From Escherichia coli (GTDB lineage: Bacteria > Pseudomonadota > Gammaproteobacteria > Enterobacterales > Enterobacteriaceae), in assembly GCF_024502345.1 (NCBI RefSeq), contig NZ_JALDNN010000001.1: a DNA stretch of 64,000 nucleotides; one strand, 5' to 3'. Of the stretch, positions 60,737-62,008 are shown piece by piece (within the stretch, counting starts at the first letter, position 1; the number at the start of each line of letters is the position of its first letter). The notes under the pieces are model-generated. The model saw only the letters and a program-made list of their open reading frames with translations, ran no database searches and was not told the DNA's origin. The position numbers and the translations under genes are program-made.

Positions 60737-62008
60737 GTGGTTATAGCTTCTACTTTTACCAGCGACACATTGCCTGCCGATCACAAAGCAGCTATCCGTC
60801 AGATGAAGCACGCGCTGCGGGCGCAGCTTGGCGACGTCCAGCAGATCTTTAATCAGCTAAGCGATGACATTGCCACGCGAGTGGCTGAAATCAACGCACT
60901 CAAAGCACAGGGCGATGCCGTCTGGCCGGTGCTGTCTTATGCCGATATCAAAGCAGGTCATGTTACTGCAGAGCAGCGCGAACAGATTAAACGTCGCGGT
61001 TGTGCGGTGATAAAAGGCCATTTCCCCCGCGAACAAGCGCTAGGCTGGGATCAGTCGATGCTGGACTATCTGGACCGCAACCGCTTTGACGAGGTCTACA
61101 AAGGCCCCGGCGATAATTTCTTCGGGACGCTCAGCGCTTCACGTCCCGAGATTTACCCCATCTACTGGTCGCAGGCGCAAATGCAGGCCCGCCAGAGTGA
61201 AGAAATGGCGAATGCGCAGTCGTTTCTCAATCGTCTGTGGACATTTGAAAGTGATGGAAAGCAATGGTTTAACCCGGATGTGAGCGTCATCTACCCTGAC
61301 CGTATCCGCCGCCGTCCGCCCGGAACGACCTCCAAAGGTCTTGGAGCGCATACCGACTCCGGGGCGCTGGAACGCTGGCTGCTTCCAGCGTATCAGCGCG
61401 TTTTCGCCAACGTCTTTAATGGCAATCTGGCGCAATATGATCCCTAGCATGCGGCACATCGTACGGAAGTTGAAGAGTACACGGTGGACAACACCACCAA
61501 ATGTTCCGTGTTTCGGACATTCCAGGGCTGGACAGCGCTCTCTGATATGCTGCCTGGTCAGGGGTTGCTGCACGTTGTGCCCATTCCTGAAGCCATGGCG
61601 TACGTACTGTTACGTCCGCTGCTTGATGATGTGCCGGAGGATGAACTGTGCGGCGTAGCGCCCGGAAGAGTGTTGCCGGTATCAGAGCAATGGCATCCAC
61701 TGTTAATTGAGGCGTTAACCAGCATTCCAAAACTCGAGGCCGGAGACTCCGTCTGGTGGCACTGCGACGTCATCCATTCCGTTGCCCCCGTTGAAAATCA
61801 ACAGGGTTGGGGCAACGTGATGTACATTCCTGCGGCACCGATGTGCGAGAAAAATCTTGCCTACGCGCACAAGGTGAAGGCCGCACTGGAAAAAGGCGCA
61901 TCGCCGGGCGACTTCCCGCGCGAGGACTATGAAACAAACTGGGAAGGACGCTTTACGCTTGCCGACCTCAACATTCACGGTAAGCGAGCGTTGGGCATGG
62001 ATGTTTGA
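60737..62008 (+). pseudogene. ybiU: DUF1479-family protein YbiU with an in-frame TAG stop (possibly also missing its ATG start)
   Basis: ORFs 60737..61447 and 61484..62008 share one frame and are separated only by TAG at 61445..61447; the position where the K-12 start is expected (60743) reads ATA here. Confidence 0.8.

Follow-up and report, generated by a model that had tools for sequence, protein, structure and literature searches.

The ybiU locus and its surroundings

The window, a 64,000-nt stretch of an Escherichia coli contig, carries on its plus strand a ybiU pseudogene of the Gig2-like family (formerly DUF1479) at 60743–62008 (1,266 nt, 421 codons plus the stop) that has two lesions. 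Compared with the ybiU gene of IAI1 (WP_000168797.1), the window copy exhibits exactly two base differences, at 60745 and 61446, both of them G to A. The surrounding gene order, ybiY-ybiW-ybiV-ybiU with ybiT convergent, is the usual E. coli arrangement. With Trp235 restored, the encoded protein matches the crystallised E. coli YbiU (PDB 2DBI/2DBN) at 100% identity, and its relatives include Salmonella YbiU (2CSG), the proteins of 4RGK, 7TWC and 7TWE, and the Candida Gig2 protein (6AKZ). The PF07350 domain covers residues 16–419 of the restored protein as one continuous domain (E=2.4e-154). The copy thus belongs to the ybiU/PF07350 locus both by its whole-length family match and by its conserved chromosomal position; what it lacks is an uninterrupted frame with a canonical start, as it carries a TAG at codon 235 and begins with ATA. 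No functional characterisation of ybiU or DUF1479 was found in the searchable literature, and ybiU is counted among the 'y-ome' genes (PMC6412132).

A 1,351-nt query spanning the locus matched 4,308 of 5,426 complete E. coli genomes. The closest of the matches listed had 2 mismatches, and none of those listed reached 100% identity. There was no megablast match to ybiU in 1,118 of the 5,426 complete genomes; in another 206 records of this survey the best ybiU place had only 60–80% identity, and five places were on plasmids. Ten nonsense truncations of ybiU were tested, and all ten exist somewhere in public data. Given the many genomes with no match and the presence of every tested truncation, ybiU looks widely dispensable.

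Several smaller features were observed at either end of the gene. In some E. coli a LacI-family regulator, not ybiT, lies downstream of ybiU and overlaps its 3' end (L017, 5233–8705; L047 and L048, 2733–3636). L017 has genes for an MFS transporter and a GH31 glycosidase beyond this regulator, and its ybiU differs over the final ~15 nt; the LacI-regulator arrangement looks like an alternative island junction. The gap between ybiU and ybiT contains a REP-like region (62080–62190), in which the sequence around ~62162–62163 resembles REP/BIME palindromes. IAI1 carries a ~1.28-kb IS621 element (IS110 family) inserted at the site matching ~62162–62163 of the window, where the site is empty, and MB07011 also has IS621 between ybiU and ybiT. 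At the upstream end, a 40-codon ATG open reading frame on the plus strand (60730–60852) overlaps the ybiU start region in another frame and is probably a chance ORF.

An inherited amber stop at codon 235

An amber stop, TAG, stands at 61445–61447 on the plus strand, where by genome comparison it replaces Trp235 (TGG) through the G to A change at 61446. Translation of 60737–62008 yields a single internal stop (...LAQYDP*HAAHRTEVEEY...). The open reading frames 60737–61447 and 61484–62008 share a common frame and begin 747 nt (249 codons) apart; the latter is a mechanical ORF contained in the untranslated C-terminal remnant of ybiU, which extends over codons 236–421 (61448–62008, plus strand). 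The first-pass annotation had described a ybiU split by an in-frame TAG, with a joined length of ~421 aa, and this description is borne out: both halves lie in the same frame and belong to the same Pfam family, PF07350, which the gene tables of relatives assign to both ybiU fragments, and the intact product is 421 aa long. Its view of the TAG as the sole interruption is accurate in that this is the only in-frame stop in ybiU, but the start codon has been lost as well (ATG to ATA). For the ancestral codon it had further offered TGG or CAG; the complete E. coli genomes show it to be TGG and not CAG, and the alignment with other E. coli ybiU genes that it had proposed as a check returned an ancestral TGG altered by the single G to A at 61446. 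TGG is present in every intact copy inspected, and a 71-mer containing the TAG is absent from ~4,081 of the 4,085 complete genomes with ybiU. By alignment, the equivalent of codon 235 encodes Trp in Salmonella and Phe in 4RGK and Gig2; in orthologs, a sense codon occupies the place of the stop. No natural split exists at this position in homologs, the Salmonella, Citrobacter and Candida relatives all being full length.

The same TAG is found in close relatives of the window. L012, a human gut metagenome scaffold of 123 kb, matches the window at every one of 7,258 compared bases (56743–64000) but 60745, where it has G; over the same 7,258 nt L014 has 3 differences and L009 has 12. The combination of ATG and TAG occurs in all three. 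Among the ten retrieved places encoding the 234-aa product, the TAG is shared by L008–L012 and L014–L017, and codon 235 in L013 is TGA, not TAG. The TAG is also present in four of ~4,085 complete genomes with ybiU, a frequency of ~0.1%: PI24, MB07011, UCPROB-001 and UCPROB-002, in all of which PGAP labels ybiU a pseudogene with an 'internal stop'. These four alleles resemble that of the window in the TGG to TAG change at codon 235, an identical 71-mer and the same synteny, but they keep the ATG and lie on other haplotypes, with 1–11 additional changes, synonymous or missense. In public collections, 170 contigs encode exactly the 234-aa product that begins at ATG and ends at the stop in codon 235. 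Over 25 kb the best complete-genome match of the window is strain B-1109 at 99.6%, and the window is not K-12-like. Because near-identical relatives with independent assemblies contain the TAG too, it is a real, inherited allele of the window's lineage, not an assembly error.

The ATA at the start codon

The second lesion is the ATA at 60743–60745 on the plus strand, derived from an ancestral ATG by the G to A change at 60745; ~4,000 genomes have ATG at this position. A GAGG read from the sequence at 60734–60737 (plus strand), 5 nt upstream of the start at 60743, would function as the Shine-Dalgarno. A start at GTG 60737, as given in the first-pass annotation, has to be abandoned, as the real start is at 60743, where it is annotated in all compared genomes. 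The GTG precedes the annotated start by two codons and is implausible because it overlaps the GAGG Shine-Dalgarno (60734–60737). Initiation at AUA reaches ~1–2% of the AUG level (bioRxiv 10.1101/063800), and the ATA start alone would reduce ybiU initiation to ~1–2% of that from AUG.

Among 4,006 complete genomes, the ATA 71-mer occurs in only five (BUCT2930, CFS3292, PC6, LZYWN_4 and SX12). These alleles share with the window the ATG to ATA change at the start; the two examined, BUCT2930 and CFS3292, differ from it in having TGG at codon 235, in their haplotype and in being called intact by PGAP. On the window's own background the ATA is private, as L012, L014 and L009 all have ATG, and the A at 60745 may be a genuine second hit or an error in base calling. 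Since these near-identical relatives combine ATG with TAG, the TAG would be the older of the two changes in the window's lineage. The PGAP calls of an intact, ATA-start ybiU in BUCT2930 and CFS3292 (L006 and L007, 3034–3036) carry the accession WP_000168797.1, as in ATG-start genomes. Silent acceptance of ATA under a normal accession can mask a probable loss of expression.

Predicted effect on the protein

The stop at residue 235 of 421 cuts the single Gig2-like domain about midway. When YbiU is aligned with its Salmonella counterpart, 4RGK and Candida Gig2, an H-x-D segment (GAHTDSGALERW) falls in the part that precedes the stop. Two blocks strongly conserved across Salmonella 2CSG, 4RGK and 6AKZ, FRTFQGW-ALS and WHCDxxHxV, are located beyond the stop and are lost; conserved sequence has been removed from the product, and the lost blocks are presumably essential. 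The YbiU fold is probably a 2-oxoglutarate/Fe(II)-oxygenase-like double-stranded beta-helix, and a distal His would then fall in the lost part. As it lacks the conserved C-terminal half, the product of 234 residues is expected to have no activity. Because the searched literature holds no YbiU function, a probable loss of function is argued here from the truncation of the domain. The restored sequence shares 100% identity with the E. coli member of the intact YbiU/Gig2-like family (2DBI/2DBN, 2CSG, 4RGK and 6AKZ); the window copy differs from these in comprising at most 234 residues behind a near-silent start codon.

Two other ways in which the frame might yield a product were considered and rejected. 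A functional split protein is disfavoured in that no convincing Shine-Dalgarno lies upstream of GTG 61484, the start of the C-terminal ORF, and the domain is one continuous fold. Recoding as selenocysteine or pyrrolysine does not suit a UAG codon with an ancestral Trp residue, and E. coli is not known to have a Pyl system. No polar effect on the neighbouring genes is expected, since no co-directional gene follows ybiU and ybiT is convergent.

Recurrence of the stop on separate backgrounds

There are 26 variable sites across ybiU, and the carriers of the TAG are distributed over several haplotypes. The window, L009 and L012 have an IAI1-like haplotype, of which L014 carries a close derivative. 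A PI24-like haplotype is found in PI24, L010 and L016, with a derivative in MB07011; UCPROB-001 and UCPROB-002 share the UCPROB haplotype; L008 and L011 are BUCT2930-like; and L017 has a haplotype of its own. These background groups differ pairwise by 20–48 sites over 2.77 kb. With TAG on at least five well-separated backgrounds (at least 20 differences per 2.77 kb), W235-TAG is, on this haplotype evidence, recurrent in E. coli.

The Dcm site at codon 235

The stop lies within a mutated Dcm site, CCTAG, at 61443–61447 on the plus strand (CDS 701–705), and comparison with intact ybiU gives the ancestral site as CCTGG (CCWGG). In the ancestral context GAT CCC TGG CAT, G704 (61446) is opposite the inner, methylated C of the bottom-strand CCAGG. 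Deamination of this bottom-strand 5-methylcytosine would turn the bottom-strand site into CTAGG and the top-strand site into CCTAG, exactly the sequence of the window. The mutation has three of the marks of a Dcm hotspot: the inner C:G of CCWGG is the mutated pair, the change is in the C to T direction, and the identical change is recurrent. The genes dcm and vsr themselves are located beyond the window. Coulondre, Miller, Farabaugh and Gilbert are said to have traced amber hotspots in lacI in 1978 to 5-methylcytosine deamination at Dcm sites. Both systems involve a G:C to A:T change at the inner methylated C of CCWGG that yields an amber codon and recurs independently. They differ in that the lacI hotspots reportedly convert CAG to TAG on the coding strand, whereas in ybiU it is the non-coding strand that carries the methylated C (TGG to TAG), and in that ybiU is represented by a population survey that has no measured rate and is statistically weak.

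In ybiU, 38 codons are one transition away from a stop, via 51 possible transitions, and only two of the 51 fall on Dcm-methylated positions: G704A (W235*) and C781T (Q261*). Among ten exact truncated products, W235* was present on the highest number of contigs (170); Q261*, the other Dcm-site product, was found on 53, mid-range among the controls, which numbered 95 for Q273*, 71 for W263*, 58 for W212* and 24–45 for the five others. These raw contig counts were dropped as a measure of a hotspot, being confounded by clonal sampling and by genes cut at contig ends. Inspection of the DNA revealed that 6 of 10 W263* places were genes cut at contig ends and that the true Q273* places all belonged to one clone.

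Counted by lineage, true stops at the Dcm-site codons occur in 7 lineages for W235, with a TAG:TGA ratio of 6:1, and in 6–8 lineages for Q261, where only TAG is possible. At the control codons they occur in 1 lineage for Q273 (again only TAG is possible), in 4 for W263 (TAG:TGA 2:2) and in 6 for W212 (3:3). Expressed per mutation, the two Dcm-site transitions are found in 5–8 lineages each and six non-Dcm transitions in 1–3. The TAG:TGA contrast by lineage, 6:1 at W235 versus 5:5 at W212 and W263 together, gives p=0.16 by the Fisher test and p=0.06 by the binomial test. In the complete genomes, synthetic-allele queries detected W235-TAG in 4 and returned 0 each for W235-TGA, Q261-TAG, W263-TAG, W175-TAG and W166-TAG, so that the TAG:TGA ratio at codon 235 is 4:0 there. 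The second nonsense-capable Dcm site, Q261 (C781T), exhibits no excess and is absent from the complete genomes. The direction of the counts agrees with the Dcm model, and the population support appears suggestive, not conclusive. The complete-genome queries support W235-TAG as an allele that would be unusual among stops, and they do not generalise the Dcm effect. Deamination of 5-methylcytosine at the Dcm site is, on balance, the most likely origin of the TAG, though not a demonstrated one, and such an origin would explain the identical stop on several unrelated backgrounds.

Interpretation of the two lesions

It is very probable that the window's ybiU is a true pseudogene whose decay is still at an early stage, with an inherited TAG, for which deamination at a Dcm site is the most likely origin, and a later ATA. 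A G:C to A:T transition would have converted Trp235 from TGG to TAG in an ancestor that the window has in common with wild gut E. coli. The 5-methylcytosine of the CCTGG/CCAGG site would have deaminated to thymine and escaped Vsr very-short-patch repair, for which the deamination of C5meCWGG to CTWGG is the lesion corrected (PMC2715241). Translation would then stop after 234 residues, in mid-domain, and the conserved C-terminal half would be absent. The start codon would later have changed from ATG to ATA in the window's own lineage, a second hit that would be expected without selection, unless it is a sequencing error. Here we infer deamination as the cause, the order of the two hits and the neutrality of the second.

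The first-pass annotation had left the choice between a genuine nonsense allele and a sequencing or assembly error, and the former is preferred, as the TAG is shared with near-identical relatives and four complete genomes. If the true sequence were TGG (and ATG), the gene would be intact. Single-base substitutions are a common class of error, and ATA and TAG together match no complete genome (the best has 2 mismatches) and no recorded product, the 236-aa product of a GTG start being nowhere on record. Against this, the TAG is repeated in the independently sequenced L012 and L014 and in the four complete genomes, and an error hitting the same base there would be very improbable; it is for the ATA alone that the window's background offers no independent support. 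Taken as an account of the whole locus, error is extremely improbable. It is also very unlikely that ybiU is still expressed as full-length YbiU through a suppressor tRNA (supE-like or prophage-borne) or leaky termination at UAG-C. The TAG is indeed followed by C, and termination at UAG-C is relatively weak in E. coli; the frame beyond the stop is completely open. However, a tRNA scan of the 64-kb window found no tRNA genes and so no suppressor candidate within it; the closest relatives with the TAG come from human gut metagenomes, not from laboratory K-12 supE strains, and the window does not resemble K-12. A damaged start (~1–2% initiation) combined with inefficient read-through would leave only a trace of product, and the TAG is rare (~0.1%), scattered and not conserved among relatives.

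The recurrence of W235* itself might reflect selection for the loss of ybiU, or the recombinational spread of one allele, in place of a mutational hotspot. W235-TAG is the commonest of the stops tested and the second Dcm site has no excess in complete genomes; the 1,118 complete genomes (of 5,426) with no ybiU match and the existence somewhere of every tested truncation are in keeping with selection for loss, and short-patch recombination could carry one TAG between backgrounds. Under selection for loss, however, any null allele would be favoured, with no preference for a single base, and a frequency of ~0.1% is not suggestive of a sweep. As the carriers already differ at sites 80 nt before and 119 nt after the stop, the recombined patches would have to be very short. 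Both leave unexplained the preponderance of TAG over TGA at codon 235 (6:1 by lineage, 4:0 in complete genomes), and together they are considered unlikely. More specifically, W235-TAG could be a recurrently selected allele for low expression or conditional read-through (UAG-C plus AUA), or represent parallel adaptive loss in gut E. coli. Either would offer a handle on the function of the y-ome gene ybiU, a Gig2-like enzyme, and we give this idea very little credence.

W235-TAG is already known, in that it is marked as a pseudogene in RefSeq genomes and follows a textbook mutational route; what is new is its combination with ATA. For annotation, the locus should be given as one ybiU pseudogene at 60743–62008, not as two ORFs, and GTG 60737 is unsuitable as its start. 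The ybiU TAG offers a natural example of a stop made at a Dcm methylation site and recurring across lineages. For wider biology it carries little weight, being one more inactivated accessory gene in E. coli.

An IS1 insertion in pdeI

Elsewhere in the window, pdeI (yliE) is interrupted by a 768-bp IS1 at 43917–44684. The flanks at 43908–43916 and 44685–44693 form a 9-bp target-site duplication, CCCCTTGTT, and pdeI is uninterrupted in strain B-1109. Owing to the IS1 in pdeI, the 25-kb query matched each genome at dozens of places and gave many hits on plasmids.
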